Shown piece after piece: positions 1,306 through 15,758 of a DNA stretch of 64,000 nucleotides. Under the pieces are notes generated by a model. It had not been told where the DNA came from. It made no database searches and saw only the letters and a list, made by a program, of their open reading frames with translations. The DNA is taken from assembly GCF_024223415.1 (NCBI RefSeq), contig NZ_CP100500.1; one strand, given 5' to 3'. Position 1 is the stretch's first letter. Each line of letters begins with the position of its first letter. The position numbers and the translations under genes are program-made. Source of the stretch: Escherichia coli. GTDB taxonomy: Bacteria > Pseudomonadota > Gammaproteobacteria > Enterobacterales > Enterobacteriaceae.

Positions 1306-3207
1306 ATGTCAACCGGATTACGTTTCACACTGGAAGTGGACGGCCTGCCACCGGACGCTTTTGCGGTGGTTTCCTTTCATCTCACCCAGTCACTCTCTTC
1401 GCTCTTTTCCCTCGATCTCTCCCTGGTCAGCCAGCAGTTTCTCTCCCTTGAATTCCAGCAGATCCTCGACAAAATGGCCTACCTGACGATATGGCAGGGC
1501 GATGACGTACAGCGCCGGGTGAAAGGTGTGGTGACCTGGTTTGAACTGGGGGAGAACGACAAAAACCAGATGCTGTACAGCATGAAGGTATGCCCGCCGC
1601 TGTGGCGTGCCGGTCTGCGCCAGAACTTCCGTATCTTCCAGAACGAGGACATCAAAAGCATCCTCGGCACGATATTGCAGGAAAACGGGGTGACCGAGTG
1701 GAGTCCGCTGTTCAGTGAACCGCATCCTTCCCGTGAGTTTTGTGTCCAGTACGGTGAGACTGATTACGATTTCCTGTGCCGGATGGCGGCGGAGGAAGGC
1801 ATCTTCTTTTATGAGGAGCATGCTTACAAAAGTACCGACCAGAGCCTGGTGCTGTGCGACACGGTCCGCCATCTGCCCGAATCTTTTGAAATCCCATGGA
1901 ACCCGAACACCCGTACCGAGGTGAGCACCCTCTGCATCAGCCAGTTTCGCTACAGCGCACAAATCCGCCCTTCTTCCGTGGTGACCAAAGACTACACCTT
2001 TAAACGCCCCGGCTGGGCAGGACGTTTTGATCAGGAAGGCCAGCACCAGGATTACCAGCGCACGCAGTATGAGGTGTATGACTACCCCGGACGTTTCAAG
2101 GGCGCCCACGGGCAGAACTTTGCCCGCTGGCAGATGGAGGGCTGGCGAAACAATGCAGAAACCGCGCGGGGAATGAGTCGCTCGCCGGAGATATGGCCGG
2201 GACGGCGAATTGTGCTGACGGGGCATCCGCAGGCGAACCTGAACCGGGAATGGCAGGTGGTGGCAAGTGAACTGCACGGCGAGCAGCCGCAGGCGGTGCC
2301 GGGAAGGCGGGGAGCAGGGACGGCGCTGGAGAACCATTTTGCGGTGATCCCGGCAGACCGGACATGGCGACCCCAGCCGCGGCTAAAACCGCTGGTGGAC
2401 GGTCCGCAGAGCGCCGTCGTGACGGGGCCGGAGGGTGAGGAAATCTTCTGTGATGAACATGGCCGAGTGCGGGTGAAATTCAACTGGGACCGTTATAACC
2501 CGGCAGACCAGGACAGCTCGTGCTGGATCCGTGTGGCACAGGCGTGGGCAGGCACCGGTTTTGGCAACCTGGCGATACCGCGTGTGGGTCAGGAGGTGAT
2601 AGTGGACTTCCTCAACGGCGATCCGGACCAGCCGATCATTATGGGGCGCACCTACCACCAGGAAAACCGCACCCCCGGCAGCCTGCCGGGGACGAAGACG
2701 CAGATGACCATCCGTTCCAAAACGTATATGGGCAGCGGGTTTAATGAGCTGAAGTTTGACGATGCGACAGGGAAAGAACAGGTCTACATCCACGCGCAGA
2801 AGGACATGGATACCGAGGTACTCAACGATCGTACCACCACCGTAAAACACGATCATCGCGAAACCGTAAAAAATGACCAGACGGTCACGATACAGGAAGG
2901 TAATCGCCTTCTTATGGTGGAAAAAGGCGACAAGATCACAGGAGTACGAAAAGGTTCTTTATCTGAGAATGTCTTTCAGGACAGAGGCACGATTGCCGGT
3001 TCGGTGCATGTTGACGCTGTAGACAATGGTGGCGAAGGCAACGGTATACAGGCTTATACGGCAATTAAGGAAATTATGCTGGCCGTGGAGGAAAGCAAAA
3101 TTGCGCTGACGCCGGATGGCATTCAGCTACAGGTCGGGGAATCAACGGTAATCAGGCTGTCGAAGGATGGCATCACCATCGTGGGCGGCTCTGTTTTTAT
3201 CAACTGA
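1306..3207 (+). CDS. vgrG: T6SS spike protein VgrG
   Basis: 633 aa; gp27/gp5-like architecture with conserved gp5-type segment (IPRVGQEVIVDFLNGDPDQPIIMG); good RBS (ggaggttgctATG); followed by Eag chaperone and PAAR-Rhs genes. Confidence 0.9.
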   Translation: MSTGLRFTLEVDGLPPDAFAVVSFHLTQSLSSLFSLDLSLVSQQFLSLEFQQILDKMAYLTIWQGDDVQRRVKGVVTWFELGENDKNQMLYSMKVCPPLWRAGLRQNFRIFQNEDIKSILGTILQENGVTEWSPLFSEPHPSREFCVQYGETDYDFLCRMAAEEGIFFYEEHAYKSTDQSLVLCDTVRHLPESFEIPWNPNTRTEVSTLCISQFRYSAQIRPSSVVTKDYTFKRPGWAGRFDQEGQHQDYQRTQYEVYDYPGRFKGAHGQNFARWQMEGWRNNAETARGMSRSPEIWPGRRIVLTGHPQANLNREWQVVASELHGEQPQAVPGRRGAGTALENHFAVIPADRTWRPQPRLKPLVDGPQSAVVTGPEGEEIFCDEHGRVRVKFNWDRYNPADQDSSCWIRVAQAWAGTGFGNLAIPRVGQEVIVDFLNGDPDQPIIMGRTYHQENRTPGSLPGTKTQMTIRSKTYMGSGFNELKFDDATGKEQVYIHAQKDMDTEVLNDRTTTVKHDHRETVKNDQTVTIQEGNRLLMVEKGDKITGVRKGSLSENVFQDRGTIAGSVHVDAVDNGGEGNGIQAYTAIKEIMLAVEESKIALTPDGIQLQVGESTVIRLSKDGITIVGGSVFIN

Positions 3208-3234
3208 TTCACTCAGATTATCAGGGAGTATTTT

Positions 3235-3696
3235 ATGCAGTTCACTTTTAATGAAGGCCACATTCAACTGCCGTCTCAATGGCAGGATCAGTCAATGCAG
3301 GTCCTGGTGTCCACAGATAACAGTGGCATCAACCTGGTCATTACCCGCGAAGCCGTTCCACAGGGAACCCTGACACCAGAGCTGTACCAGGAAACGCTGG
3401 CGCTGTACCAGGGCAAACTTGATGGGTACACCGCACATGCCTGCCGGGAAATCACTCTGGCAGAGGCCCCGGCCTGGCTGCTGGATTATTCCTGGAACGG
3501 TCCGGAAGATGAAGGGAATCAGGGGCGGATTAGCCAGATAGCCGTATTCCAGCGGCGTGGAGATACGCTGCTGACCTTCACTTTCAGCACCTCCTTATCC
3601 CTGAAGAACAGTCAAAAGACGATGCTGCTGGAGGTGATAAAGAGCTTCACCCCGTTGCCACCGGAGAATGATATCCAAAAGGACCAGCCGCGCTGA
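3235..3696 (+). CDS. DUF1795/Eag-family effector chaperone (EagR-like)
   Basis: 153 aa; N-terminal FNEG...LPSQWQDQS signature typical of Eag chaperones; sits between vgrG and a prePAAR Rhs effector. Confidence 0.65.
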   Translation: MQFTFNEGHIQLPSQWQDQSMQVLVSTDNSGINLVITREAVPQGTLTPELYQETLALYQGKLDGYTAHACREITLAEAPAWLLDYSWNGPEDEGNQGRISQIAVFQRRGDTLLTFTFSTSLSLKNSQKTMLLEVIKSFTPLPPENDIQKDQPR

Positions 3697-3715
3697 CATA
3701 AACGAGGGATAACAC

Positions 3716-6700
3716 ATGAGTGAAGGACCAGGCGGGCCACAGGGAGCGACCGCAGGCGGTACGCTGGCAATGCGAATGCTTTCACAGCAGGCGATGGTCG
3801 CCAGCCAGATGAAACGGGCAGCCAACAACAAAGCCATTGCACAGATGTTGGCATCAAAAAAGTCTGGCCCCCCCGCCGCCAGGCTGGGCGATGAAATTCA
3901 GCACAAGAGTTTTTTGGGGGCGCTGGCAGGGGCCGTGCTGGGGGCGATAGTGACCATCGCAGAAGGTTGCCTGATTATGGCCGCCTGTGCCACCGGCCCT
4001 TATGCGCTGGTTCTGGTGCCTGCGCTGATGTATGCCAGCTATAAGGCGAGTGATTATGTGGAGGAGAAACAGAACCAGCTTGAATCATGGATAAACAGCT
4101 TTTGTGACACGGACGGCGCCATCAATACCGGTTCTGAAAACGTAAAAATTAACGGAAAGCCCGCTGCCAGGGCCGCCGTCACCCTTCCCTCTCCTCCCCC
4201 GCCTGAAGCAATACCCGAAGCCTCACAGGGGGAGCATTCATGGGGTGACATGGCCCTTGACCTGCTTGAATCGGCAGCGGAAAAAGCAGCGCCACTGGCT
4301 AAATCCTGGGGGAACGCTGTTATCACCCTGACGGACAGCAATGCCAGTTTTATGGATCGCGTCAGTGCAGGCGCATCGCTTCTGTTTCCCGCCGGTCCGG
4401 TATTAATGGAGTTTGCCACCATGGTGGGCGGGCGTGGCGAAATCAAAAAAGATGTGGATTTCCCGGAAGCCGGTGAGGACACGGCGCTCTGCGACAAGGA
4501 GAACAAACCACCGAGGATAGCCCAGGGCAGCAGCAACGTCTTTATCAACAATCAGCCTGCCGCGCGCAAGGGCGACAAACTGGAGTGCAGCGCGGCAATC
4601 GTGGAAGGTTCGCCGGACGTCTTTATTGGGGGTGAGCAGGTCACCTATCTGGATATCCAGCCGGAGTTCCCGCCATGGCAGAGAATGATCCTGGGAGGAA
4701 TAACGATAGCCAGCTATCTTCTGCCGCCAGCAGGACTGCTGGGAAAACTGGGGAATCTGGCGAAACTGGGCAAACTGGGAAACCTGCTGGGGAAAAGCGG
4801 GAAGCTGCTGGGCGCAAAACTCGGCGCGTTGCTGGGGAAAACAGGTAAGTCGTTAAAAAGTATTGCCAATAAAGTCATCAGATGGGTAACAGATCCTGTC
4901 GATCCGGTAACCGGCGCGTACTGCGACGAACGTACCGACTTCACCCTGGGCCAGACCCTCCCCCTCTCCTTCACCCGTTTCCACAGTTCTGTACTGCCAC
5001 TGCATGGCCTGACGGGCGTGGGCTGGAGCGACTCCTGGAGCGAATACGCCTGGGTGCGTGAACAGGGAAACCGGGTGGATATCATCAGCCTGGGAGCCAC
5101 GCTGAACTTCGCCTTCGACGGTGAAAGTGATACGGCGGTTAACCCGTATCACGCCCAGTACATTCTGCGCCGCTGCGACGATTACCTGGAGCTGTTCGAC
5201 AGGAATGCACTGAGCAGCCGCTTCTTTTATGACGCCTTTCCGGGAATGCGTCTGCGCCACCCGGTGACTGACGATACCAGCGATGACCGCCTGGCACACA
5301 GCCCCGCAGACCGGATGTACATGCTGGGCGGGATGAGCGACACCGCCAGCAACCGCATCACGTTTGAGCGCGACAGCCAGTACCGGATCACGGGTGTCAG
5401 TCACACCGACGGGATCCGGCTTAAACTGACGTACCACGCCAGCGGCTACCTGAAAGCCATTCACCGCACGGATAACGGCATACAGACGCTGGCGACCTAC
5501 GAACAGGATGCGCGGGGGCGGCTGACAGAAGCGGATGCGCGGCTGGACTACCACCTGTTTTATGAGTACGACGCTGCGGACCGGATCATCCGCTGGTCCG
5601 ATAACGACCAGACGTGGAGCCGTTTCACCTACGATGAACAGGGCCGGTGCGTGACCGTCACCGGGGCGGAGGGCTATTACAACGCCACGCTGGACTATGG
5701 TGACGGCTGCACCACCGTGACGGACGGCAAGGGCATTCACCGTTATTACTATGATCCTGACGGCAATATTCTGCGGGAAGAAGCGCCGGACGGCAGCACC
5801 ACCACGTATGAATGGGATGAATTCCATCACCTGCTGGCCCGCCACTCCCCTGCCAGGCGGGTGGAGAAATTTGAATACAACGCCGCACAGGGTCAGTTAA
5901 GCCGTTACACGGCGGCAGACGGCGCGGAGTGGCAGTACTGCTATGATGAGCGCGGCCTGCTCAGCAACATCACCGACCCTGCCGGGCAGACGTGGACGCA
6001 GCAGTGTGATGAACGCGGCCTGCCGGTAAGTCTGGTGTCGCCACAGGGCGAAGAGACCCGGCTGGCGTACACGCCGCAGGGGCTGCTGTCGGGGATATTC
6101 CGCCAGGATGAACGGCGTCTGGGCATAGAGTACGACCACCACAACCGGCCGGAAACACTCACCGACGTGATGGGCCGTGAACACCACACCGAATACAGCG
6201 GTCACGACCTGCCGGTGAAGATGCGCGGCCCCGGCGGTCAGTCAGTGCGGTTGCAGTGGCAGCAGCACCATAAACTGAGCGGCCTTGAGCGGGCAGGAAC
6301 CGGCGCAGAAGGATTCCGCTATGACCGCCACGGCAACCTGCTGGCGTACACGGACGGTAACGGCGTTGTCTGGACAATGGAATACGGCCCGTTCGATTTG
6401 CCGGTGGCGCGAACGGACGGTGAAGGCCACCGCTGGCAGTACCGCTACGATAAAGACACGCTGCAGCTCACAGAAGTCATTAACCCGCAGGGTGAGTCTT
6501 ATCTTTATATTCTGGACAACTGTGGCCGGGTGACGGAAGAACGTGACTGGGGCGGCGTGGTCTGGCGTTACCGTTATGACGCTGATGGCCTGTGTACCGC
6601 CAGGGTCAACGGCCTGGAGGAAACCATCCTCTACGGCCGGGACGCCGCAGGCCGCCTGGCAGAAGTCATCACGCCGGAAGGTAAAACGCAGTATGCGTAT

Positions 6701-8536
6701 GACAAATCCGGCAGGCTGACGGGTATCTTCAGCCCGGACGGCACATCACAGCGCACCGGCTACGACGAACGCGGGCGGGTGAATGTCACCACTCAGGGCC
6801 GACGGGCCATTGAATACCACTACCCCGACGAACATACCGTCATCCGCTGTATCCTGCCACCGGAAGATGAACGCGACAGACACCCCGATGAATCCCTGCT
6901 GAAAACCACGTACCGCTACAACGCAGCCGGAGAACTGACGGAGGTTATCCTGCCGGGGAATGAGACGCTGACGTTCAGCCGTGATGAGGCAGGACGTGAA
7001 GTGTTCCGGCACAGTAACCGGGGTTTTGCCTGTGAGCAGGGCTGGAATGCAGCCGGCCAGCTTACCAGCCAGCGCGCCGGACTTTTCCCGGAGGAAGCCA
7101 CGTGGGGCGGGCTGGTTCCGTCACTGGTGCGGGAGTACCGTTACGACAGCGCGGGTAATGTGTCAGGCGTCACCAGCCGGGAAGATTACGGACGGGAAAC
7201 ACGGCGGGAATACCGGCTGGACCGGAACGGCCAAGTCACGGCGGTGACAGCCTCAGGCACCGGGCTGGGCTATGGCGAAGGCGATGAGTCCTATGGCTAT
7301 GACAGCTGTGGCTACCTGAAGGCGCAGTCTGCGGGCAGGCACCGGATAAGTGAAGAGACTGACCAGTATGCCGGAGGCCACCGGCTGAAACAGGCCGGAA
7401 ACACGCAGTATGACTATGACGCCGCAGGCCGGATGGTCAGCCGGACAAAACACCGTGACGGCTACCGCCCGGAAACAGAGCGGTTCCGGTGGGACAGCCG
7501 GGACCAGCTGACCGGGTATTGCAGCGCACAGGGTGAGCTGTGGGAATACCGCCACGACGCCAGCGGCAGACGAACAGAGAAACGCTGCGACCGGAAGAAA
7601 ATCCGCTTCACGTATCTGTGGGACGGCGACAGTATTGCGGAAATCCGGGAATACCGCGATGATGAACTGTACAGCGTACGGCACCTGGTGTTTAACGGCT
7701 TTGAGCTGATAAGCCAGCAGTTCAGCCGGGTACGGCAGCCGCACCCGTCCGTGGCTCCGCAGTGGGTGACGCGGACGAATCATGCGGTGAGCGACCTGAC
7801 GGGCCGGCCGCTGATGCTCTTTAACAGTGAAGGTAAAACCGTCTGGCAGCCGGGACAGACCAGCCTGTGGGGGCTGGCACTCAGCCTGCCCGCAGACACA
7901 GACTACCCGGACCCGCGCGGGGAACTGGACCCGGAAGCCGACCCCGGCCTGCTGTATGCGGGACAGTGGCAGGATGCGGAATCCGGGCTGTGCTATAACC
8001 GGTTCCGGTATTACGATCCGGAAACCGGAATGTACCTGGTGAGTGATCCGCTGGGGTTGCAGGGAGGGGAGCAGACTTACCGGTATGTGCCTAATCCTTG
8101 TGGGTATGTTGATCCCTCTGGGTTGGCAATGACTTCGAAAATAGTCAATAAACTACCTTCTGCAAAAGATCTTGCTACAAAAAGGGCCAGTGAGTTATTA
8201 GCAAAGGCAACATCTAATACCCAGCGAAGTAAATTACCAAGGGCAGTTTCAGCTGTTGTTGATAAGAGAACTGGCAAAATATATTATGGAGAAAGTGGCT
8301 GGCCTCACCCAACAGAAATACATCCTACATTACAAAATAATATGCCATCAGCCAGTAAGGAGCGATGGGCAATCGAGAACTGTGCGGAATTTAAAGCTGT
8401 AAATGAAGCTTTGAAGGCAAATGCGAAAATTAGTGATCTTGAAGTTCATACAGTATTGGTAAAAACAGGCGAAGCTTTTCCAATGTGTAAGAATTGTCAA
8501 ATTTCAATATTTGGCGCTGTTGTTACAAGCGGGTGA
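3716..8536 (+). CDS. prePAAR/PAAR-domain Rhs polymorphic toxin (T6SS effector) with deaminase-like C-terminal domain
   Basis: 1606 aa; prePAAR motif AARLGDEIQH, hydrophobic helices, PAAR-like segments (NGKPAARAAV, NNQPAARKGD), long YD-repeat core, DPLGL demarcation motif, then ~140 aa divergent AT-rich tail containing CAE...PMCKNC. Confidence 0.9.
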   Translation: MSEGPGGPQGATAGGTLAMRMLSQQAMVASQMKRAANNKAIAQMLASKKSGPPAARLGDEIQHKSFLGALAGAVLGAIVTIAEGCLIMAACATGPYALVLVPALMYASYKASDYVEEKQNQLESWINSFCDTDGAINTGSENVKINGKPAARAAVTLPSPPPPEAIPEASQGEHSWGDMALDLLESAAEKAAPLAKSWGNAVITLTDSNASFMDRVSAGASLLFPAGPVLMEFATMVGGRGEIKKDVDFPEAGEDTALCDKENKPPRIAQGSSNVFINNQPAARKGDKLECSAAIVEGSPDVFIGGEQVTYLDIQPEFPPWQRMILGGITIASYLLPPAGLLGKLGNLAKLGKLGNLLGKSGKLLGAKLGALLGKTGKSLKSIANKVIRWVTDPVDPVTGAYCDERTDFTLGQTLPLSFTRFHSSVLPLHGLTGVGWSDSWSEYAWVREQGNRVDIISLGATLNFAFDGESDTAVNPYHAQYILRRCDDYLELFDRNALSSRFFYDAFPGMRLRHPVTDDTSDDRLAHSPADRMYMLGGMSDTASNRITFERDSQYRITGVSHTDGIRLKLTYHASGYLKAIHRTDNGIQTLATYEQDARGRLTEADARLDYHLFYEYDAADRIIRWSDNDQTWSRFTYDEQGRCVTVTGAEGYYNATLDYGDGCTTVTDGKGIHRYYYDPDGNILREEAPDGSTTTYEWDEFHHLLARHSPARRVEKFEYNAAQGQLSRYTAADGAEWQYCYDERGLLSNITDPAGQTWTQQCDERGLPVSLVSPQGEETRLAYTPQGLLSGIFRQDERRLGIEYDHHNRPETLTDVMGREHHTEYSGHDLPVKMRGPGGQSVRLQWQQHHKLSGLERAGTGAEGFRYDRHGNLLAYTDGNGVVWTMEYGPFDLPVARTDGEGHRWQYRYDKDTLQLTEVINPQGESYLYILDNCGRVTEERDWGGVVWRYRYDADGLCTARVNGLEETILYGRDAAGRLAEVITPEGKTQYAYDKSGRLTGIFSPDGTSQRTGYDERGRVNVTTQGRRAIEYHYPDEHTVIRCILPPEDERDRHPDESLLKTTYRYNAAGELTEVILPGNETLTFSRDEAGREVFRHSNRGFACEQGWNAAGQLTSQRAGLFPEEATWGGLVPSLVREYRYDSAGNVSGVTSREDYGRETRREYRLDRNGQVTAVTASGTGLGYGEGDESYGYDSCGYLKAQSAGRHRISEETDQYAGGHRLKQAGNTQYDYDAAGRMVSRTKHRDGYRPETERFRWDSRDQLTGYCSAQGELWEYRHDASGRRTEKRCDRKKIRFTYLWDGDSIAEIREYRDDELYSVRHLVFNGFELISQQFSRVRQPHPSVAPQWVTRTNHAVSDLTGRPLMLFNSEGKTVWQPGQTSLWGLALSLPADTDYPDPRGELDPEADPGLLYAGQWQDAESGLCYNRFRYYDPETGMYLVSDPLGLQGGEQTYRYVPNPCGYVDPSGLAMTSKIVNKLPSAKDLATKRASELLAKATSNTQRSKLPRAVSAVVDKRTGKIYYGESGWPHPTEIHPTLQNNMPSASKERWAIENCAEFKAVNEALKANAKISDLEVHTVLVKTGEAFPMCKNCQISIFGAVVTSG

Positions 8537-8540
8537 TTAT

Positions 8541-8978
8541 ATGTGTGAATTAATTAATGAAGCATCAAAATATGGGAAAGTCAATGTAAGAAAGATGGAC
8601 ATTGATTTGTGTTGTAAAAAAATAGAGGAAGAAGGGTATTCTGTTTTCGTTGCGTTCTATGATTTTATAAAAAAATATGGCGGTTTATATGGCTTTCATT
8701 CAGCTTACAAAGACACCACTATAAGTGAGGCTTTTTTTATAGATCCAGAAAGGGCCTCTAATCGCATTTTTATAGAAAGAGTCAATGATTATATTGAGAG
8801 AGCTGGTTACAATATGATTCCTGTTGGCGAGTGCAGTAATGGTCATATCACATTATTATATGGGGAAAATAATGTGATATATGGCGGCTTGGATGATTAT
8901 CTTTGGAAGTATGGGGATAATTTATCTTCATCAATTGATATATTGATTAATGGTAAGGAGGCAGTTGAAATTCCGTAA
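8541..8978 (+). CDS. putative immunity protein for the Rhs C-terminal toxin
   Basis: 145 aa from internal ATG (track ORF 8511..8978), starting 5 nt after rhs stop; AT-rich like the toxin tail; assigned by position only. Confidence 0.55.
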   Translation: MCELINEASKYGKVNVRKMDIDLCCKKIEEEGYSVFVAFYDFIKKYGGLYGFHSAYKDTTISEAFFIDPERASNRIFIERVNDYIERAGYNMIPVGECSNGHITLLYGENNVIYGGLDDYLWKYGDNLSSSIDILINGKEAVEIP

Positions 8979-8986
8979 GGCCAACT

Positions 8987-10909
8987 GCCAGGGCCAACGG
9001 CCTGGAGGAAACCATCCTCAACAGCCGGGACGCCGCAGGCCGCCTGGCAGAAGTCATCTCGCCGGAAGGCAAAACGCAGTATGCGTATGACAAATCCGGC
9101 AGGCTGACGGGTATCTTCAGCCCGGACGGTACATCACAGCGCACCGGCTATGATGAACGCGGGCGGGTGAATGTCACCACTCAGGGCCGACGGGCCATTG
9201 AATACCACTACCCCGATGAACACACCGTCATCCGCTGTATCCTGCCACCGGAAGATGAACGCGACAGACACCCCGATGAATCCCTGCTGAAAACCACATA
9301 CCGCTACAACACCGCCGGAGAACTGACGGAGGTCATTCTGCCGGGGGATGAGACGCTGACGTTCAGCCGTGATGAGGCGGGACGTGAAGTGTTCCGGCAC
9401 AGTAACCGGGGTTTTGCCTGTGAGCAGGGCTGGAATGCAGCCAGCCAGCTTGTCACCCAGCGCGCCGGATTTTTCCCGGAGGAAACCACATGGGGCGGGC
9501 TGCTCCCCTCACTGGTACGGGAGTACCGTTACGACAGCGCGGGCAATGTGTCGGCTGTCACCAGCCGGGAAGATTACGGACGGGAAACACGGCGGGAATA
9601 CCGGCTGGACCGGAACGGCCATGTCACGGCGGTGACAGCCTCAGGCACCGGGCTGGGCTATGGCGAAGGCGATGAGTCCTATGGCTATGACAGCTGCGGC
9701 TACCTGAAGGCGCAGTCTGCGGGCAGGCACCGGATAAGTGAAGAGACTGACCAGTATGCCGGAGGCCACCGGCTGAAACAGGCCGGAAACACGCAGTATG
9801 ACTATGACGCCGCAGGCCGGATGGTCAGCCGGACAAAACACCGTGACGGCTACCGCCCGGAAACAGAGCGGTTCCGGTGGGACAGCCGGGACCAGCTGAC
9901 CGGGTATTGCAGCGCACAGGGTGAGCAGTGGGAATACCGCCACGACGCCAGCGGCAGACGGACGGAAAAACGCTGTGACCGGAAGAAAATCCGTTTTACG
10001 TACCTGTGGGACGGCGACAGTATTGCGGAAATCCGGGAATACCGCGATGATGAACTGTACAGCGTACGGCACCAGGTGTTTAACGGCTTTGAGCTGATAA
10101 GCCAGCAGTTCAGCCGGGTACGGCAGCCGCACCCGTCCGTGGCCCCGCAGTGGGTGACGCGGACGAATCACGCGGTGAGCGACCCGACGGGCCGCCCGCT
10201 GATGCTCTTTAACAGTGAAGGCAAGACGGTCTGGCGGCCGGGGCAGACCAGCCTGTGGGGGCTGGCACTCAGCCTGCCCGCAGACACCGACGACCCGGAC
10301 CCGCGCGGGGAACTGGACGCGGAAGCCGACCCCGGCCTGCTGTATGCAGGACAGTGGCGGGATGGGGAATCCGGGCTGTGCTATAACCGGTTCAGGTACT
10401 ACGAGCCGGAAACCGGAATGTACCTGGTGAGTGATCCACTGGGGTTGCTGGGGGGTGAGCAGACTTACCGGTATGTGCCTAATCCACTGGGTTGGATTGA
10501 CCAGTATGGACTTGCTGGTTGCCCCAGAGCTCTGGCAAGGGCAATGAAACGGGCTAACAGAAACCTAGCTAAGAGTGCCGGATACATGAATCGAGCTTGG
10601 TATAAATTCAAAGGTTCTGCCGCCCATCATATTGTTGCTTGGGATGACCCCCGTGCTTTAGGCGCAAGAAAAATTCTGGAAAAATATGGTATACACATTG
10701 ATTCCGCAGAAAATGGAATATTTTTGAAACATGTAGATCCAAACTCTCTTCAGCCAGGATCTTATCATCGTGTTATTCATACGAACAAATATTATGCTGA
10801 TGTTGAGGCACGACTCGCAGACGCAGCTAAGGCTAATGGGAAACAAGGTGTTCTTGATGAGTTAGATGCTATCAGGGATGACCTGCTTTTTAATAGACTA
10901 ATTTATTAA
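8987..10909 (+). CDS. orphan Rhs C-terminal cassette (core 3' fragment plus alternative toxin domain with AHH nuclease motif)
   Basis: DNA ~8987-10485 is a near-duplicate of main rhs ~6598-8097; after the DPLGL motif the tail differs and contains SAAHHIVAWDD; lacks N-terminus (first ATG at 9167), so may be silent. Confidence 0.7.
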   Translation, partial: ARANGLEETILNSRDAAGRLAEVISPEGKTQYAYDKSGRLTGIFSPDGTSQRTGYDERGRVNVTTQGRRAIEYHYPDEHTVIRCILPPEDERDRHPDESLLKTTYRYNTAGELTEVILPGDETLTFSRDEAGREVFRHSNRGFACEQGWNAASQLVTQRAGFFPEETTWGGLLPSLVREYRYDSAGNVSAVTSREDYGRETRREYRLDRNGHVTAVTASGTGLGYGEGDESYGYDSCGYLKAQSAGRHRISEETDQYAGGHRLKQAGNTQYDYDAAGRMVSRTKHRDGYRPETERFRWDSRDQLTGYCSAQGEQWEYRHDASGRRTEKRCDRKKIRFTYLWDGDSIAEIREYRDDELYSVRHQVFNGFELISQQFSRVRQPHPSVAPQWVTRTNHAVSDPTGRPLMLFNSEGKTVWRPGQTSLWGLALSLPADTDDPDPRGELDAEADPGLLYAGQWRDGESGLCYNRFRYYEPETGMYLVSDPLGLLGGEQTYRYVPNPLGWIDQYGLAGCPRALARAMKRANRNLAKSAGYMNRAWYKFKGSAAHHIVAWDDPRALGARKILEKYGIHIDSAENGIFLKHVDPNSLQPGSYHRVIHTNKYYADVEARLADAAKANGKQGVLDELDAIRDDLLFNRLIY

Positions 10910-10922
10910 TAAGGGCATAGTA

Positions 10923-11456
10923 ATGAATGTTTATTTAATTCGGCATGATGTGGACAACTTCAAGTTTTACTTGCAAGACGAGAGTGACTTTCTTTCAGTT
11001 GCTGCTTTTGATTTTTGTGGAGAGTCTCTATTTAATGGATGGAAACCATACAAAATAGAGCTATTTAAAGGAAAAACTAAAGCTGAGAAATCATTAAACG
11101 GGGATTTTAATTCATCATGTTTTAGTCCAGGATTATTATACGTCGAACATTCTCTCGCAGATGTATTATCTCGTCAGGCAAATGATATTGAGTTATTAAA
11201 AGTAATCACCAGTGATGATCGTGATTTTTATTATGCAAACGTGGTAGGGAAAATACCAGCCTTACATTATAACAACAGACAAGAGCTACAAATTATGAGT
11301 AGAACACAAGAATATAAATTCAATAACTCCATAAATGAAATGTTAATATTTCGTGATAAAACATTACCTTCAAACTATTTTGTTACAGATCGTTTTGTGG
11401 ATATTTTTCAGAATGATTTTCGTGGGGTAATTTTTAAAAAAGTTGGTGAGATATAA
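10923..11456 (+). CDS. putative immunity protein for the orphan Rhs-CT
   Basis: 177 aa, AT-rich, immediately downstream of orphan toxin stop; assigned by position. Confidence 0.5.
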   Translation: MNVYLIRHDVDNFKFYLQDESDFLSVAAFDFCGESLFNGWKPYKIELFKGKTKAEKSLNGDFNSSCFSPGLLYVEHSLADVLSRQANDIELLKVITSDDRDFYYANVVGKIPALHYNNRQELQIMSRTQEYKFNNSINEMLIFRDKTLPSNYFVTDRFVDIFQNDFRGVIFKKVGEI

Positions 11457-11482
11457 CTTAATGCATTGAACATCTAACCCGT

Positions 11483-12015
11483 ACCGCTATGACCGCCACG
11501 GTAACCTGCTGGCGTACACGGACGGTAACGGCGTTGTCTGGACGATGGAATACGGCCCGTTCGATTTGCCGGTCGCGCGAACGGACGGTGAAGGCCACCG
11601 CTGGTGGTACCGCTACGATAAAGACACGCTGCAACTGACAGAAGTCATCAACCCGCAGGGTGAGTCATATCTTTATGTTCTGGATAACTGTGGCCGGGTG
11701 ACGGAAGAGCGTGACTGGGGCGGCGTGGTCTGGCGTTACCGCTATGACGCCGATGGCCTCTGTACCGCCAGGGTCAACGGACTGGAGGAAACCATCCTCT
11801 ACAGCCGGGACGCTGCAGGGCGCCTGGCAGAAGTCATCACGCCGGAAGGGAAAACGCAGTATGCGTATGACAAATCCGGCAGGCTGACGGGTATCTTCAG
11901 CCCGGACGGCATATCACAGCGCACCGGCTATGACGAACGCGGGCGGGTGAATGTCACCACTCAGGGCCGACGGGCAGGGAAAGATCATCAGAAGTTCACT
12001 TTTTGTACTAAATAA
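11483..12015 (+). pseudogene. truncated rhs core fragment
   Basis: ~11483-11975 duplicates main rhs ~6316-6807, then diverges into a short tail before a stop; no toxin domain; abuts the H-repeat element. Confidence 0.7.
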
Positions 12016-13400
12016 TTCGCATTTTATGTTTAAAAATTGAGATATTCCTCATTATCCGAAGCTGTTTTTTATTGCTTATACATGATCAAATACTCCTTAC
12101 ATAATTAAGGAGAACAAAATGGAACTTAAAAAATTGATGGAACATATTTCTATTATCCCCGATTACAGACAAGCCTGGAAAGTGGAACATAAATTATCAG
12201 ATATTCTACTGTGGACTATTTGTGCCGTTATTTCTGGTGCAGAAGGTTGGGAAGATATAGAGGATTTTGGGGAAACACATCTCGATTTTTTGAAGCAATA
12301 TGGTGATTTTGAAAATGGTATTCCTGTTCACGATACCATTGCCAGAGTTGTATCCTGTATCAGTCCTGCAAAATTTCACGAGTGCTTTATTAACTGGATG
12401 CGTGACTGCCATTCTTCAGATGATAAAGACGTCATTGCAATTGATGGAATAACGCTCCGGCACTCTTATGATAAGAGTCGTCGCAGGGGAGCGATTCATG
12501 TCATTAGTGCGTTCTCAACAATGCACAGTCTGGTCCTCGGACAGATCAGGACGGATGAGAAATCTAATGAGATTACAGCTATTCCTGAACTTCTTAACAT
12601 GATGGATATTAAAGGAAAAATCATCACAACTGATGCGATGGGTTGCCAGAAAGATATTGCAGAAAAGATACAAAAACAGGGAGGGGATTATTTATTCGCT
12701 GTAAAGGGAAATCAGGGGCGACTAAATAAAGCCTTTGAGGAAAAATTCCCGCTGAAAGAATTAAATAATCCAGAGCATGACAGTTACGCAATCAGTGAAA
12801 AGAGTCACGGCAGAGAAGAAATCCGTCTTCATATTGTTTACGATGTCCCTGATGAACTTATTGATTTCACGTTTGAATGGAAAGGGCTGAAGAAATTATG
12901 CGTGGCAGTCTCCTTTCGGTCCATAATAGCAGAACAAAAGAAAGAGCCAAAAATGACGGTCAGATATTATATCAGTTCTGCTGATTTAACCGCAGAGAAG
13001 TTCGCCACAGCAATCCGAAACCACTGGCACGTGGAGAATAAGCTGCACTGGCGTCTGGACGTGGTAATGAATGAAGACGACTGCAAAATAAGAAGAGGAA
13101 ATGCAGCAGAATTATTTTCAGGGATACGGCACATTGCTATTAATATTTTGACGAATGATAAGGTATTCAAGGCAGGGTTAAGACGTAAGATGCGAAAAGC
13201 AGCCATGGACAGAAACTATCTGGCGTCAGTCCTTGCGGGGAGCGGGCTTTCGTAATCTTGCCCTGCCTGCTCACCTCCAGGCACTTCCACTACATCATGA
13301 CCTGATCGGTGCCACCACTCCTCTTCACTATGACGTTAACCTCCCCTCCTTGACACCACGCTTTTGTCTACATTCTACGCAAACGGCAACTTTTATAACC
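11976..13400 (+). mobile_element. H-repeat (ISAs1-family) insertion element; boundaries approximate
   Basis: Homology to rhs ends at ~11975; contains the transposase ORF; right end not resolved by eye. Confidence 0.45.
12119..13255 (+). CDS. ISAs1-family transposase (H-repeat-associated protein)
   Basis: 378 aa; classic H-rpt protein sequence ([31 protein letters not shown]...); known association with Rhs elements. Confidence 0.9.
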
Positions 13401-13520
13401 AGTGTAAAAATAACGTGCCGCAATAGTCATACCTATTAATGGTAAAAAGCTGTCACAATTCATAAAAAACCTTAATATACGCCACCCTAAACATAACCAG
13501 CGTTAATGTAAGGTTTTTGT

Positions 13521-15758
13521 GTGGACTGGCTTCTTGATGTTTTTGCTACCTGGCTCTACGGCTTAAAAGTAATCGCGATAACGTTAGCGGTCATCATGTT
13601 CATCAGCGGGCTGGACGATTTTTTTATTGATGTCGTCTACTGGGTACGCCGCATTAAACGCAAGTTGAGTGTTTATCGCCGCTACCCGCGAATGAGTTAC
13701 CGCGAACTGTATAAACCAGATGAAAAACCGTTAGCGATTATGGTTCCGGCGTGGAATGAAACGGGCGTCATCGGCAATATGGCCGAGCTGGCGGCGACCA
13801 CGCTCGACTACGAAAACTATCATATCTTTGTTGGCACCTACCCCAACGACCCGGACACTCAGCGTGATGTTGACGAAGTGTGCGCTCGCTTCCCGAATGT
13901 GCATAAGGTAGTCTGCGCGCGTCCTGGCCCCACCAGCAAAGCCGACTGTCTGAACAACGTGCTGGACGCCATCACCCAGTTTGAGCGTAGCGCCAATTTC
14001 GCATTTGCTGGTTTTATTCTGCATGACGCCGAAGATGTGATTTCACCGATGGAGTTGCGTCTGTTCAACTATCTGGTCGAGCGTAAAGATCTGATTCAGA
14101 TCCCGGTATACCCATTCGAACGCGAATGGACGCACTTCACCAGCATGACTTACATTGATGAGTTTTCAGAACTGCATGGCAAAGATGTTCCGGTGCGTGA
14201 AGCCCTCGCCGGACAAGTACCCAGCGCAGGCGTCGGCACCTGTTTCAGCCGCCGCGCCGTGACCGCTCTGTTAGCTGATGGTGACGGTATTGCTTTCGAC
14301 GTGCAAAGTCTTACTGAAGATTACGACATTGGCTTCCGCCTGAAAGAAAAAGGTATGACGGAAATTTTTGTCCGTTTTCCGGTGGTGGATGAAGCCAAAG
14401 AACGCGAGCAGCGTAAATTTTTACAGCACGCACGGACGTCAAACATGATCTGCGTGCGCGAATATTTCCCCGATACCTTTTCGACTGCGGTTCGACAAAA
14501 ATCCCGCTGGATCATCGGCATTGTTTTCCAGGGCTTTAAAACCCATAAATGGACCTCCAGCCTGACGCTGAACTACTTTCTCTGGCGCGACCGCAAAGGG
14601 GCAATCAGTAACTTTGTCAGCTTCCTCGCGATGCTGGTGATGATCCAGCTTTTGCTGTTGCTGGCGTATGAAAGTTTGTGGCCCGATGCCTGGCATTTCC
14701 TTTCTATTTTTAGCGGCAGCGCATGGTTAATGACCCTGCTGTGGCTAAACTTTGGCTTGATGGTTAACCGCATCGTGCAGCGGGTGATTTTCGTCACTGG
14801 CTACTACGGCCTCACGCAGGGGCTACTATCTGTCCTGCGTCTTTTCTGGGGCAACCTGATTAACTTCATGGCCAACTGGCGCGCGTTAAAACAGGTACTT
14901 CAACACGGCGATCCACGTCGCGTCGCGTGGGATAAAACAACGCATGACTTCCCCAGCGTCACTGGCGATACCCGCTCGTTGCGCCCGTTAGGTCAAATTC
15001 TGCTGGAAAATCAGGTCATCACTGAAGAACAGCTCGATACAGCACTGCGTAATCGCGTCGAAGGTCTACGCCTGGGCGGTTCAATGCTGATGCAGGGGCT
15101 GATTAGCGCCGAGCAGCTGGCACAGGCGCTGGCAGAGCAAAACGGCGTGGCGTGGGAATCCATCGATGCCTGGCAGATCCCGTCCTCGCTGATTGCCGAA
15201 ATGCCGGCCTCCGTGGCGCTGCATTATGCGGTACTGCCGCTGCGTCTGGAAAATGATGAGTTAATTGTCGGCAGTGAAGATGGTATTGACCCGGTTTCGC
15301 TGGCGGCCCTGACGCGTAAAGTCGGACGCAAAGTGCGTTACGTCATTGTTCTGCGGGGACAAATTGTCACGGGGTTACGTCACTGGTATGCACGCCGACG
15401 CGGTCACGATCCGCGGGCAATGTTGTACAATGCGGTTCAGCATCAGTGGCTCACGGAACAGCAGGCCGGTGAAATCTGGCGGCAATATGTGCCGCATCAG
15501 TTCCTGTTCGCCGAAATACTGACCACGCTCGGTCATATTAATCGTTCAGCAATTAACGTGTTGTTATTGCGCCATGAACGCAGTTCTCTGCCGCTCGGCA
15601 AGTTTTTGGTCACCGAAGGCGTTATCAGCCAGGAAACGTTGGATCGCGTCCTGACAATTCAACGCGAATTACAAGTTTCGATGCAATCACTATTACTCAA
15701 AGCAGGTTTAAACACAGAACAGGTTGCGCAACTGGAGTCCGAAAATGAAGGAGAATAA
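13521..15758 (+). CDS. nfrB: glycosyltransferase NfrB (phage N4 adsorption protein B)
   Basis: 745 aa, GTG start; family-2 glycosyltransferase with N-terminal membrane helices; synteny with nfrA. Confidence 0.9.
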   Translation: MDWLLDVFATWLYGLKVIAITLAVIMFISGLDDFFIDVVYWVRRIKRKLSVYRRYPRMSYRELYKPDEKPLAIMVPAWNETGVIGNMAELAATTLDYENYHIFVGTYPNDPDTQRDVDEVCARFPNVHKVVCARPGPTSKADCLNNVLDAITQFERSANFAFAGFILHDAEDVISPMELRLFNYLVERKDLIQIPVYPFEREWTHFTSMTYIDEFSELHGKDVPVREALAGQVPSAGVGTCFSRRAVTALLADGDGIAFDVQSLTEDYDIGFRLKEKGMTEIFVRFPVVDEAKEREQRKFLQHARTSNMICVREYFPDTFSTAVRQKSRWIIGIVFQGFKTHKWTSSLTLNYFLWRDRKGAISNFVSFLAMLVMIQLLLLLAYESLWPDAWHFLSIFSGSAWLMTLLWLNFGLMVNRIVQRVIFVTGYYGLTQGLLSVLRLFWGNLINFMANWRALKQVLQHGDPRRVAWDKTTHDFPSVTGDTRSLRPLGQILLENQVITEEQLDTALRNRVEGLRLGGSMLMQGLISAEQLAQALAEQNGVAWESIDAWQIPSSLIAEMPASVALHYAVLPLRLENDELIVGSEDGIDPVSLAALTRKVGRKVRYVIVLRGQIVTGLRHWYARRRGHDPRAMLYNAVQHQWLTEQQAGEIWRQYVPHQFLFAEILTTLGHINRSAINVLLLRHERSSLPLGKFLVTEGVISQETLDRVLTIQRELQVSMQSLLLKAGLNTEQVAQLESENEGE

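Follow-up and report, generated by a model that had tools for sequence, protein, structure and literature searches.

The rhs core fragment that begins at 11484 of the window, by which we mean the whole 64,000-nucleotide stretch of Escherichia coli DNA analysed here, is probably the stump of the oldest displaced rhs copy in its island. About 2.8 kb of the 3′ part of this copy would have been deleted at an ISEc1 element that was already resident there, a reading to which we assign a probability of roughly 0.55. The preliminary description of this DNA had the arriving element truncate the fragment. Our searches of 5,426 complete E. coli genomes do not bear this out and correct the order of events, with a long-established IS and a young truncation.

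The rhs array and its core fragment

The fragment belongs to the clade IV Rhs island already known from the cusS–nfrB interval of E. coli, and the island features around it are collected in Table 1. In a Pfam profile search the main rhs gene shows prePAAR/PAAR, DUF6531 and RHS repeats, and its C-terminus gives only a weak YwqJ-deaminase match. The C-terminus of the first orphan copy matches the AHH nuclease domain (PF14412, E=2.6e-15); in KV7 and NCTC9112 this AHH orphan rhs is labelled ‘missing N-terminus’ by PGAP. The 177-aa ORF behind it has no Pfam match, and its counterparts in NCTC10444/E203449 are annotated as hypothetical proteins (WP_001103754/WP_001103753).

Table 1. Features of the rhs array, the ISEc1 element and the island tail (window coordinates)
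Feature	Position	Strand	Remarks
Full-length PAAR-Rhs gene (main rhs)	3716-8536		segment 6316-6807 (+) is the part duplicated in the fragment
First displaced (orphan) rhs copy	8984-10909	+	5′ boundary equivalent to main rhs 6596; C-terminal AHH nuclease domain
177-aa ORF 3′ of the AHH orphan	10923-11456	+	presumed immunity gene of the AHH orphan
27-bp spacer	11457-11483		with the 177-aa ORF, conserved module junction upstream of the fragment
Tip-less rhs core relic, 491 bp	11484-11974	+	163 in-frame codons, YD/RHS repeats
Chance fusion ORF, 156 aa (predicted)	11545-12015	+	rhs frame plus 40 bp of the IS left end; TAA 12013-12015
ISEc1 (H-rpt, ISAs1 family), 1291 bp	11975-13265	+	ends CAGGG...CCCTG
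Left terminal inverted repeat	11975-11986	+	CAGGGAAAGATC; 10/12 bases match the right-end reverse complement
ISAs1-family DDE transposase, 378 aa, intact	12119-13255	+	PF13808 E=2.7e-33, PF01609 E=2.8e-29, both full-length
Right terminal inverted repeat	13254-13265	-	reverse complement CAGGGCAAGATT
Island tail, 113 bp	13266-13378	+	between the IS and resumed K-12 homology upstream of nfrB

The fragment is indeed a third, partial copy of the rhs core, as had been described. By BLASTN within the 64-kb window, 11484-11975 aligns with main rhs 6316-6807 over 492 bp without gaps and with 95.5% identity (22 mismatches, E=0), and the first 212 bp of the orphan (8984-9195) align with the last 212 bp of the fragment (11764-11975) with 94.8% identity. 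Besides these two, neither the fragment nor the IS has any further match in the window. The rhs reading frame is kept free of stops, with 4 of the 163 residues differing from the main copy. Four RHS repeats (PF05593, E=7.5e-32) place the fragment in the Rhs core, and the Pfam search of its translation found YD repeats only and no toxin domain. As a 5′-truncated core copy that follows the full-length rhs at its locus and runs in the same direction, it is of the kind found in orphan modules. The N-terminal PAAR region and DUF6531 are missing, since homology begins at the equivalent of core position 6316 with stop codons directly upstream. The end of the core, the toxin domain and the immunity gene are missing as well, and the rhs frame enters the IS at 11975 and stops at 12013-12015.

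No C-terminal tip with its cognate immunity gene follows the fragment; the IS adjoins it directly, while the homologous orphans of E203449 and VG35A2 have a tip and small ORFs, so that the fragment is a tip-less core fragment. In NCTC10444, PGAP annotates the identical sequence as an Rhs pseudogene that lacks both termini, with an ISAs1 family transposase after it, and the same pseudogene call is made in other genomes with the fragment. The fragment has no function of its own. The 156-aa fusion ORF is predicted only, from a mechanical ORF listing.

Upstream, the ORF tail, spacer and fragment (11400-11975) are contiguous in more than 40 other genomes with 95-96.5% identity. More than 40 genomes that have the 5′ junction of the fragment carry a complete orphan rhs-toxin gene there, which is why we regard the fragment as what was left of the oldest displaced rhs after ~2.8 kb had been removed. 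The window and E203449 are collinear and ungapped over 8984-11975 with 96.5% identity; at 3.5% divergence E203449 is not a direct ancestor. Its orphan runs 1920 bp past the window junction, with a C-terminal tip, two small ORFs and an 820-bp spacer, and is then followed by the IS. The downstream rhs copies of the window differ in their 5′ boundaries (equivalents of main rhs 6596 and 6316), and intermediate array architectures are found in NCTC10444 and E203449. The preliminary description had counted at least two displacement or insertion events; two C-terminal displacements are supported by these boundaries and architectures, and an insertion into the fragment is not.

The ISEc1 element and its junctions

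The ends of the IS were set from eight aligned copies and from the simple insertion in VG35A2. The 1291 bp that start at 11975 share 97.6% identity with K-12 H-rptB/yhhI. Thus 11976-12118 belongs to the IS, as its non-coding left end, rather than to rhs, and the continuation of rhs homology through this stretch, named beforehand as the observation that would speak against an interruption, does not occur. The rhs homology stops abruptly at the first base of the ISAs1-family H-repeat, as had been reported; this base, C 11975, is common to the rhs homology and the IS end. A single DDE ORF with PF01609 and PF13808, in an element within ~1.2-1.5 kb, assigns the IS to the ISAs1 family. The transposase is identical to WP_071337660.1 of NCTC10444 and KV7, and its orthologues are named ‘ISAs1-like element ISEc1 family transposase’ by PGAP. 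The terminal inverted repeats are short and imperfect, and the ends are conserved across all aligned copies. An inverted-repeat listing gives the same arms; the two extra flanking bases that it includes are peculiar to the window copy.

A check for inverted repeats and a target-site duplication (TSD) had been proposed, and the former were found and the latter was not: the 10 bp to the left of the window IS are GGCCGACGGG and the 10 bp to its right are CCTGCTCACC. In contrast, the rhs of VG35A2 contains a true simple ISEc1 insertion, with a perfect 10-bp TSD, TCGGTTAACC, and with rhs continuing on the right side. The presence of a TSD there and its absence here point to a later rearrangement at the window copy, and leave its membership in the ISAs1 family untouched.

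The two junctions of the window IS have very different distributions. The right junction, from IS end to island tail, is present in 2,288 of the 5,426 genomes, and the tail itself in 2,463. The exact rhs::IS junction of the window is found in 4 of the 5,426 (NCTC10444, NCTC9112, KV7 and SCU-316). From this difference it follows that the IS was present first and that the 3′ end of the fragment was made later, by a rearrangement at the IS terminus. The IS-less strain MFDS1019527 has the tail with a single CCTGCTCACC, and its match to the window begins precisely at the boundary of the IS. The first 10 bp of the tail (13266-13275) would therefore be the original ISEc1 target. K-12 homology resumes at 13379. 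We also considered the tail as diverged rhs, which would imply a simple insertion, and rejected this because local alignment to the whole array gives chance matches of 11-12 bp only. In FDAARGOS_1282, 66 bp of the tail are missing exactly at the right IS terminus.

On the left side, no fewer than eight different flanks adjoin the same resident IS exactly at CAGGG. Five of them are rhs core, ending at the equivalents of positions 5319, 5492, 6799, 6807 and ~7120, and three are non-rhs (EDL933, 2014C-4423 and E203449/VG35A2). The left flank of EDL933 (O157:H7) is 99.0% identical to that of 16F5M1D1 over 900 bp and collinear until 315 bp from the IS, where the IS terminus follows; judged from this alignment, the 315-bp loss represents a nested IS-adjacent deletion relative to 16F5M1D1. 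Such a nested relation was found for this pair of types only. The flanks of EDL933, 2014C-4423 and E203449 are unrelated in sequence and were rejected as nested deletions of each other. A truncated main rhs joined to the IS, the CP53 type, occurs in at least 36 genomes. The CP53 flank GCTGCTCCCC matches CCTGCTCACC at 8/10 bases and was considered as the remnant of a left TSD; this was dismissed, since other rhs alleles contain the string natively, as at window 9478. In ~114 genomes of the FDAARGOS_1282 type the rhs::IS junction lies 8 bp from that of the window, with its 5′ boundary at 6588 and a different upstream module, and the IS and fragment differ by 4-5% between the two junction types.

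Two intermediates were predicted. The right junction of a simple insertion would consist of the IS right end, GGCCGACGGG and continuing rhs, and the original left junction of the resident IS would consist of an MFDS1019527-like flank with CCTGCTCACC before the IS left end. Neither is retained by any of the 5,426 complete genomes. The two matches with at least 80% coverage to the former are two-piece joins ~570 bp apart.

Order of events and alternative explanations

Our favoured explanation starts with an incoming core-toxin-immunity unit, comprising the AHH nuclease and the 177-aa ORF, which would have displaced the resident rhs downstream and so given rise to the 5′ end at 11484. This boundary (main rhs 6316) would be inherited, being common to many strains with a complete orphan. 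At the right edge of the island ISEc1 would already have been long resident, in its original target CCTGCTCACC in the tail, when a later deletion of ~2.8 kb made the 3′ end of the fragment. With its endpoint exactly at the ISEc1 left terminus, this deletion would have removed the remaining orphan core and its toxin tip together with the immunity genes and spacer behind it. How much DNA was lost, and which, can only be estimated, because no comparator is a direct ancestor: the fragment is 3.2-5% diverged from every other rhs copy examined and has ~8 private substitutions. The deletion was probably caused by the IS itself, either by intramolecular transposition of its left end into the rhs core or by homologous recombination with a second, directly oriented ISEc1 inserted there. 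The sequence alone cannot separate these two routes, and we know of no characterisation of the transposition chemistry of the ISAs1 family.

The reverse order is possible though rather unlikely. An IS-adjacent deletion would first have cut the main rhs at 6807, as in the CP53-like state, and a circular core-AHH-immunity unit with its 5′ boundary at 6316 would then have integrated by a single crossover within 6316-6807, restoring the full-length gene and leaving the 6316-6807 stump against the IS. Truncated main rhs::IS states do exist (CP53 type), NCTC10444 carries exactly the predicted product, and the scheme fits the circular-intermediate model of Jackson et al. One ancestral stump meeting different circles also predicts nearly the same junction with differing 5′ boundary and module, and the FDAARGOS_1282-type junction is derivable from that of the window by slippage between GGGC repeats. 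However, this order requires horizontal transfer and a crossover inside 492 bp, where a single deletion suffices for the alternative. Simple recombination between direct core repeats is another way to reset the 5′ boundary, and with 4-5% differences in IS and fragment between the two junction types the common descent of their junctions is not demonstrated. It is improbable that the stretch from the fragment to the IS left end was imported by double homologous recombination, in rhs core and IS, with the junction made elsewhere. In such a replacement the IS would act as a portable homology, which could account, in place of nested deletion, for the mutually unrelated left-flank DNAs of several strains; recombination or conversion between copies would also be compatible with the divergence of up to 4% among the resident IS copies at the cusS-nfrB site. 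Yet the window-type junction is confined to cusS-nfrB in four closely related genomes, with no second locus, and 98 variable sites in eight copies reveal no clear switch that would mark a mosaic breakpoint in the window IS.

An IS-independent illegitimate deletion through microhomology, with its right endpoint at the IS terminus by chance, is very improbable. The shared base C 11975 makes a 1-bp junction formally possible, but endpoints placed at random would be spread across hundreds of bases, and many of them would have cut into the IS or left the TSD in place. Among the sampled loci no such endpoints, within the IS or short of its end, are present: no fewer than eight independent types of left flank, and a deletion in the right flank as well, stop precisely at the terminal base of the IS. 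We can give hardly any credence to a new ISAs1/H-rpt transposition that truncated the fragment or the orphan gene by inserting into it. In its favour, ISEc1 does enter rhs cores in this island (VG35A2), and the fragment does end exactly at the IS terminus. It is contradicted by the absent TSD, by DNA other than rhs on the right of the IS, by the identical right junction in 2,288 genomes with other left flanks, and by the junction of IS end, GGCCGACGGG and rhs in none of the 5,426 genomes.

Relation to known Rhs and IS systems

The underlying biology is already known: a description of the locus with its tip arrays dates from 2009, and the fragment and IS are annotated in RefSeq genomes with identical sequence. 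Dissociated rhs ‘tips’ and tip-less core fragments were reported at E. coli Rhs locus 4 (nfrB/cusS, clade IV; Jackson et al. 2009, BMC Genomics 10:584, PMC2935791), and the same locus has been termed rhsW3 or EcolC_3079 at b0570-b0569 (Archer et al. 2011, PMC3032704). The window shares with locus 4 the chromosomal site, the vgrG, DcrB-like (Eag) and PAAR-Rhs architecture, and the downstream array of 5′-truncated core copies with differing toxin/immunity tips. Two strains of Jackson et al. have a downstream core fragment without an associated tip, and the window copy corresponds to the tip-less state drawn in their Fig. 5 (PMC2935791). Neither paper discusses the H-rpt/ISEc1 at the array end as the cause of the missing tip, which is traced here to a rearrangement exactly at the IS terminus; the text of Jackson et al. 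(PMC2935791) contains no mention of H-rpt, H-repeat, insertion sequence or transposase.

A comparison with other Rhs-associated H-rpt copies had been proposed. The window IS and the K-12 copies (H-rptB/yhhI, H-rptE/ydcC) have the same length, CAGGG...CCCTG ends and a 378-aa transposase, with 97.1-97.6% identity. In both cases the IS borders an Rhs element on the downstream side and is oriented like rhs, and the K-12 copies are likewise without target duplications. Unlike these, the window copy occupies another Rhs locus and neighbours an rhs of another clade. The left flank of the K-12 RhsB IS is not rhs core, whereas that of the window and of at least four other junction types at cusS-nfrB is. 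The K-12 yrhC/H-rptB neighbourhood was compared as well and rejected as a counterpart: its IS matches, and its left flank is not the rhs of the fragment.

Two kinds of IS-related deletion are comparable, namely IS-mediated adjacent deletions, classical for IS1, IS10 and IS903, and deletions by recombination between directly repeated IS copies. The window junction resembles these in its endpoint exactly at the IS terminus, the unchanged IS and opposite flank, the lost TSD and the nested series in relatives. It differs from them in that transposase dependence is undemonstrated for the ISAs1 family and that the evidence here is comparative only. H-repeat-mediated recombination was proposed for the origin of the Salmonella enterica group D2 O-antigen cluster (Reeves et al. 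2013, PMC3715488, citing Xiang et al. 1994). There too, an H-repeat lies exactly at the junction of unrelated DNA segments as the proposed mediator of rearrangement; the D2 case joined two gene clusters with an IS remnant, while here an intact IS adjoins a gene truncated after deletion. H-rpt transposition is reported as never observed (PMC3032704), and no ISAs1 or rhs circles are reported in a mobilome preprint (10.1101/2024.07.17.603846). PMC10711316, considered as a source on ISEc1, is about ISEc12.

Beyond correct annotation, with the fragment as a pseudogene and the IS as a standard ISEc1, the importance of the junction itself is small. Since the IS is old and the truncation young, analyses of the mobilome or of evolution should not score such junctions as new IS insertions.

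ISEc1/H-rpt is commonly regarded as an inert passenger of Rhs elements. The comparative series at cusS-nfrB offers natural evidence that ISEc1 has been active and shapes the content of Rhs toxin/immunity arrays, in the form of one right junction that stays constant in ~2,300 genomes, many left junctions precise to the IS terminus and a single clean insertion with a TSD. We tentatively raise the idea that the resident ISEc1 is a recurrently active editor of the toxin arrays at this site, acting by terminus-precise deletions. If this were true, ISEc1 would trim old toxin/immunity modules and sometimes inactivate the main effector, which would be rescued by incoming tips. The observations cited for this idea are at least five rhs-core::IS junctions, the 315-bp deletion in O157:H7, the 66-bp deletion on the right side and at least one insertion into rhs with a 10-bp TSD. 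The fragment, for its part, supplies 492-bp and 212-bp direct-repeat homologies, at which RecA-type recombination can delete or amplify toxin/immunity modules.

The rhs array between cusS and nfrB

In this E. coli DNA, a T6SS-associated Rhs island is located between the 3' end of cusS, whose reading frame ends at 712, and nfrB, which starts at 13521. Homology to K-12 stops near 690 and restarts at 13379, and the cusS-nfrB gap of K-12 is only 149 bp. This locus is position 4 (nfrB/cusS, clade IV) of Jackson et al. 2009 (PMC2935791); the E. coli W genome paper places it at b0570-b0569 (PMC3032704). The K-12 cusS homology breaks off about 20 bp short of the stop codon (690-712), and CusS has 482 aa in island-bearing strains versus 480 aa in K-12, which places the left boundary of the island inside the 3' end of cusS. 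For the tip at the C-terminus of the main Rhs protein (8200-8536), the YwqJ-like deaminase match reaches 23.1 bits, below the Pfam cutoff of 25.9, and the active effector is thus of uncertain toxin class, although a clear SUKH-3 immunity gene follows the tip.

Features of the Rhs island, in order along the window
Feature	Position	Remark
vgrG	1306-3207	
DcrB/Eag-type chaperone gene	3235-3696	
main rhs (full-length prePAAR/PAAR-Rhs gene)	3716-8536	weak YwqJ-deaminase-like match at C-terminus
SUKH-3 immunity gene	8511-8978	
first orphan rhs (5'-truncated)	8984-10909	AHH nuclease tip
177-aa ORF	10923-11456	
rhs fragment	11484-11974	base 11975 shared with IS end
ISEc1 (H-rpt, ISAs1 family)	11975-13265	
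island tail	13266-13378	113 bp

A BLASTN comparison of this region with the window itself aligns 11484-11975 with 6316-6807 of the main rhs gene (492 bp, 95.5% identity, 0 gaps) and 11764-11975 with 8984-9195 of the first orphan (94.8% identity). The rhs homology ends at 11975, where ISEc1 starts, and 11976-12118 is the left end of the IS and not rhs. The preliminary description of a third rhs core copy ending abruptly at an H-repeat element is thus borne out.

Read in the rhs frame, the fragment has no stop codon and matches four RHS repeats; four of its 163 residues differ from the main copy, and the frame terminates at a TAA 40 bp into the IS. PGAP labels the identical sequence a pseudogene. 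The fragment has no function of its own; delivery domain, core end, toxin and immunity gene are all absent. The only plausible role is a passive one as a direct repeat of the main gene (492 bp) and of the first orphan (212 bp), through which recombination would remove or amplify the toxin/immunity modules in between. NCTC10444, which differs from the window by one unit, exemplifies this kind of change, here between the main copy and the first orphan. Fragment and IS are 100% identical in NCTC10444 and the window. The unit lacking in NCTC10444 (its locus 8804-13610 versus window 3716-10909) comprises the deaminase-like tip and SUKH-3, and the one rhs gene of this strain has a frameshift. Either recombination between main and orphan cores deleted the unit, or NCTC10444 represents the array before the unit came in.

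Ends of ISEc1 and simple insertion

The 1291-bp IS is 97.6% identical to K-12 H-rptB (yhhI) and 97.1% to H-rptE (ydcC), and encodes an intact transposase of 378 aa (PF13808 and PF01609). Alignment of eight copies defines its ends as CAGGGAAAGATC...AATCTTGCCCTG, with inverted repeats agreeing at 10 of 12 positions. Its flanks differ (left GGCCGACGGG, right CCTGCTCACC), without target duplication, and no rhs sequence is found to its right. A simple insertion into the fragment is therefore excluded. Of the signatures proposed earlier for checking, the terminal inverted repeats are present while the target-site duplication is not. Of the suggested "displacement or insertion events", two successive displacements stand, but the insertion has to be replaced by a rearrangement beside an old IS.

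A simple ISEc1 insertion has a different look in VG35A2, where a second copy lies inside the main rhs gene of the same island (VG35A2 locus 2543-3833; window equivalent 5135-5144). Its target duplication of 10 bp, TCGGTTAACC, is perfect, and rhs runs on at both sides. This is a clean natural case of H-rpt/ISEc1 transposition, a process described as not observed (PMC3032704). The two ISEc1 copies of VG35A2 are directly repeated 16 kb apart and could recombine. In K-12, neither H-rptB (flanks GTCAACGGC / AATACAGGAC) nor H-rptE (GCGTTAAACA / GGCATTATTG) has a target-site duplication, which points to flank rearrangement as a general feature of Rhs-linked H-rpts.

A young truncation at an old element

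The IS is old and the truncation young. Among 5,426 complete E. coli genomes, 2,288 have the right end of the IS joined to the tail and 2,463 have the island tail; the rhs::IS junction of the window occurs ungapped in only four (NCTC10444, NCTC9112, KV7 and SCU-316), three of them with an array identical to the window's and NCTC10444 without one 2.39-kb repeat unit. In an IS-less spacer (MFDS1019527, also E. coli 042 and others), the tail carries CCTGCTCACC once, and homology of MFDS1019527 to the window starts exactly at the IS boundary. This spacer (3951-6236 of the MFDS1019527 locus) has neither rhs nor vgrG. Besides the tail it retains three small ORFs, among them a member of the SMI1/KNR4 family, a typical immunity fold, and it may be a remnant of the island reduced to immunity genes.

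From 8984 to 11975, through the AHH copy, the 177-aa ORF, a 27-bp spacer and the fragment, the window is collinear with E203449, ungapped at 96.5% identity. The 5' junction of the fragment is common to more than 40 genomes. The 5' boundary of the fragment is therefore inherited and marks the edge of a module in the displacement array. In E203449 the downstream copy is intact as an orphan of 1920 bp that includes a C-terminal tip, and after it come two small ORFs, about 820 bp of spacer and the same IS. Compared with such an array, about 2.8 kb beside the IS are missing from the window lineage. The fragment is identical to no sampled allele (3.2-5% different, about 8 private substitutions), so we infer the content of the lost DNA.

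In the retrieved loci, all left-flank types meet the IS at its exact first base. The rhs core extends to equivalent position 6807 of the main gene in the window type (4 genomes), ends 8 bp earlier in the FDAARGOS_1282 type (about 114 genomes), and reaches about 7120 in a truncated main gene in the CP53 type (at least 36 genomes), 5492 in DSM 103246 and 5319 in the 16F5M1D1 type (4 of 6 randomly sampled junction-bearing genomes). Slippage between GGGC repeats could have turned a window-type junction into that of the FDAARGOS_1282 type. Three mutually unrelated non-rhs flanks are found in EDL933, 2014C-4423 and E203449/VG35A2. Over 900 bp left of its IS, EDL933 (O157:H7) is 99.0% identical to 16F5M1D1 and then jumps 315 bp to the IS terminus (EDL933 locus 12708 versus 16F5M1D1 locus 1974-2289). 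This loss, which took out a 180-bp rhs core fragment present in 16F5M1D1-like strains, is a nested IS-adjacent deletion. FDAARGOS_1282 lacks 66 bp of the tail, missing from the exact right end of the resident IS onward (locus position 6001).

The junction is best read as the product of a deletion whose endpoint coincides exactly with the terminus of an already resident ISEc1. This deletion could have proceeded by intramolecular transposition of the IS left end into the rhs core, or a second ISEc1 copy, inserted in the core in direct orientation, could have recombined with the resident one; two-copy intermediates of this kind do occur in the same island, as seen in VG35A2. The predicted simple-insertion junction is absent from the 5,426 genomes, the inferred original left flank with duplicated target is found in no genome, and the window IS has no clear mosaic breakpoint. 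A serious rival reverses the order: the main rhs gene would have been truncated first, as in CP53, and a circular core-AHH-immunity unit would afterwards have restored it by recombination within 6316-6807. This follows the circular-intermediate model of Jackson et al. (PMC2935791) and fits the near-identical junction with a different 5' boundary in about 114 genomes, which is also explicable by later recombination between core repeats. A microhomology deletion independent of the IS is unlikely, as the endpoints are repeatedly terminus-precise.

Relation to described Rhs loci

All parts fall in described categories. The clade IV Rhs locus itself has been described (PMC2935791), including dissociated tips as well as core fragments that lack a tip; K-12 RhsB and RhsE likewise carry H-rpt/ISEc1 at the downstream edge of the Rhs element; and H-repeat-associated recombination (PMC3715488) is a precedent for the IS-adjacent deletion. 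Only the population-scale evidence that ISEc1 was active at the site and edits the array is mildly new.

To be noted, FDAARGOS_1282 carries in mid-array (2377-2756) a PAAR-region rhs fragment (main 4433-4731) followed by a degenerate 81-bp remnant of the ISEc1 left end (81% identity). The commonest terminal rhs fragment at the locus (16F5M1D1 2108-2289 versus window 5140-5319) begins at core-equivalent 5140, within the 10-bp target of the VG35A2 insertion. This start and the mere 8 bp between the window-type and FDAARGOS_1282-type junctions may reflect hot spots, shared ancestry or chance.
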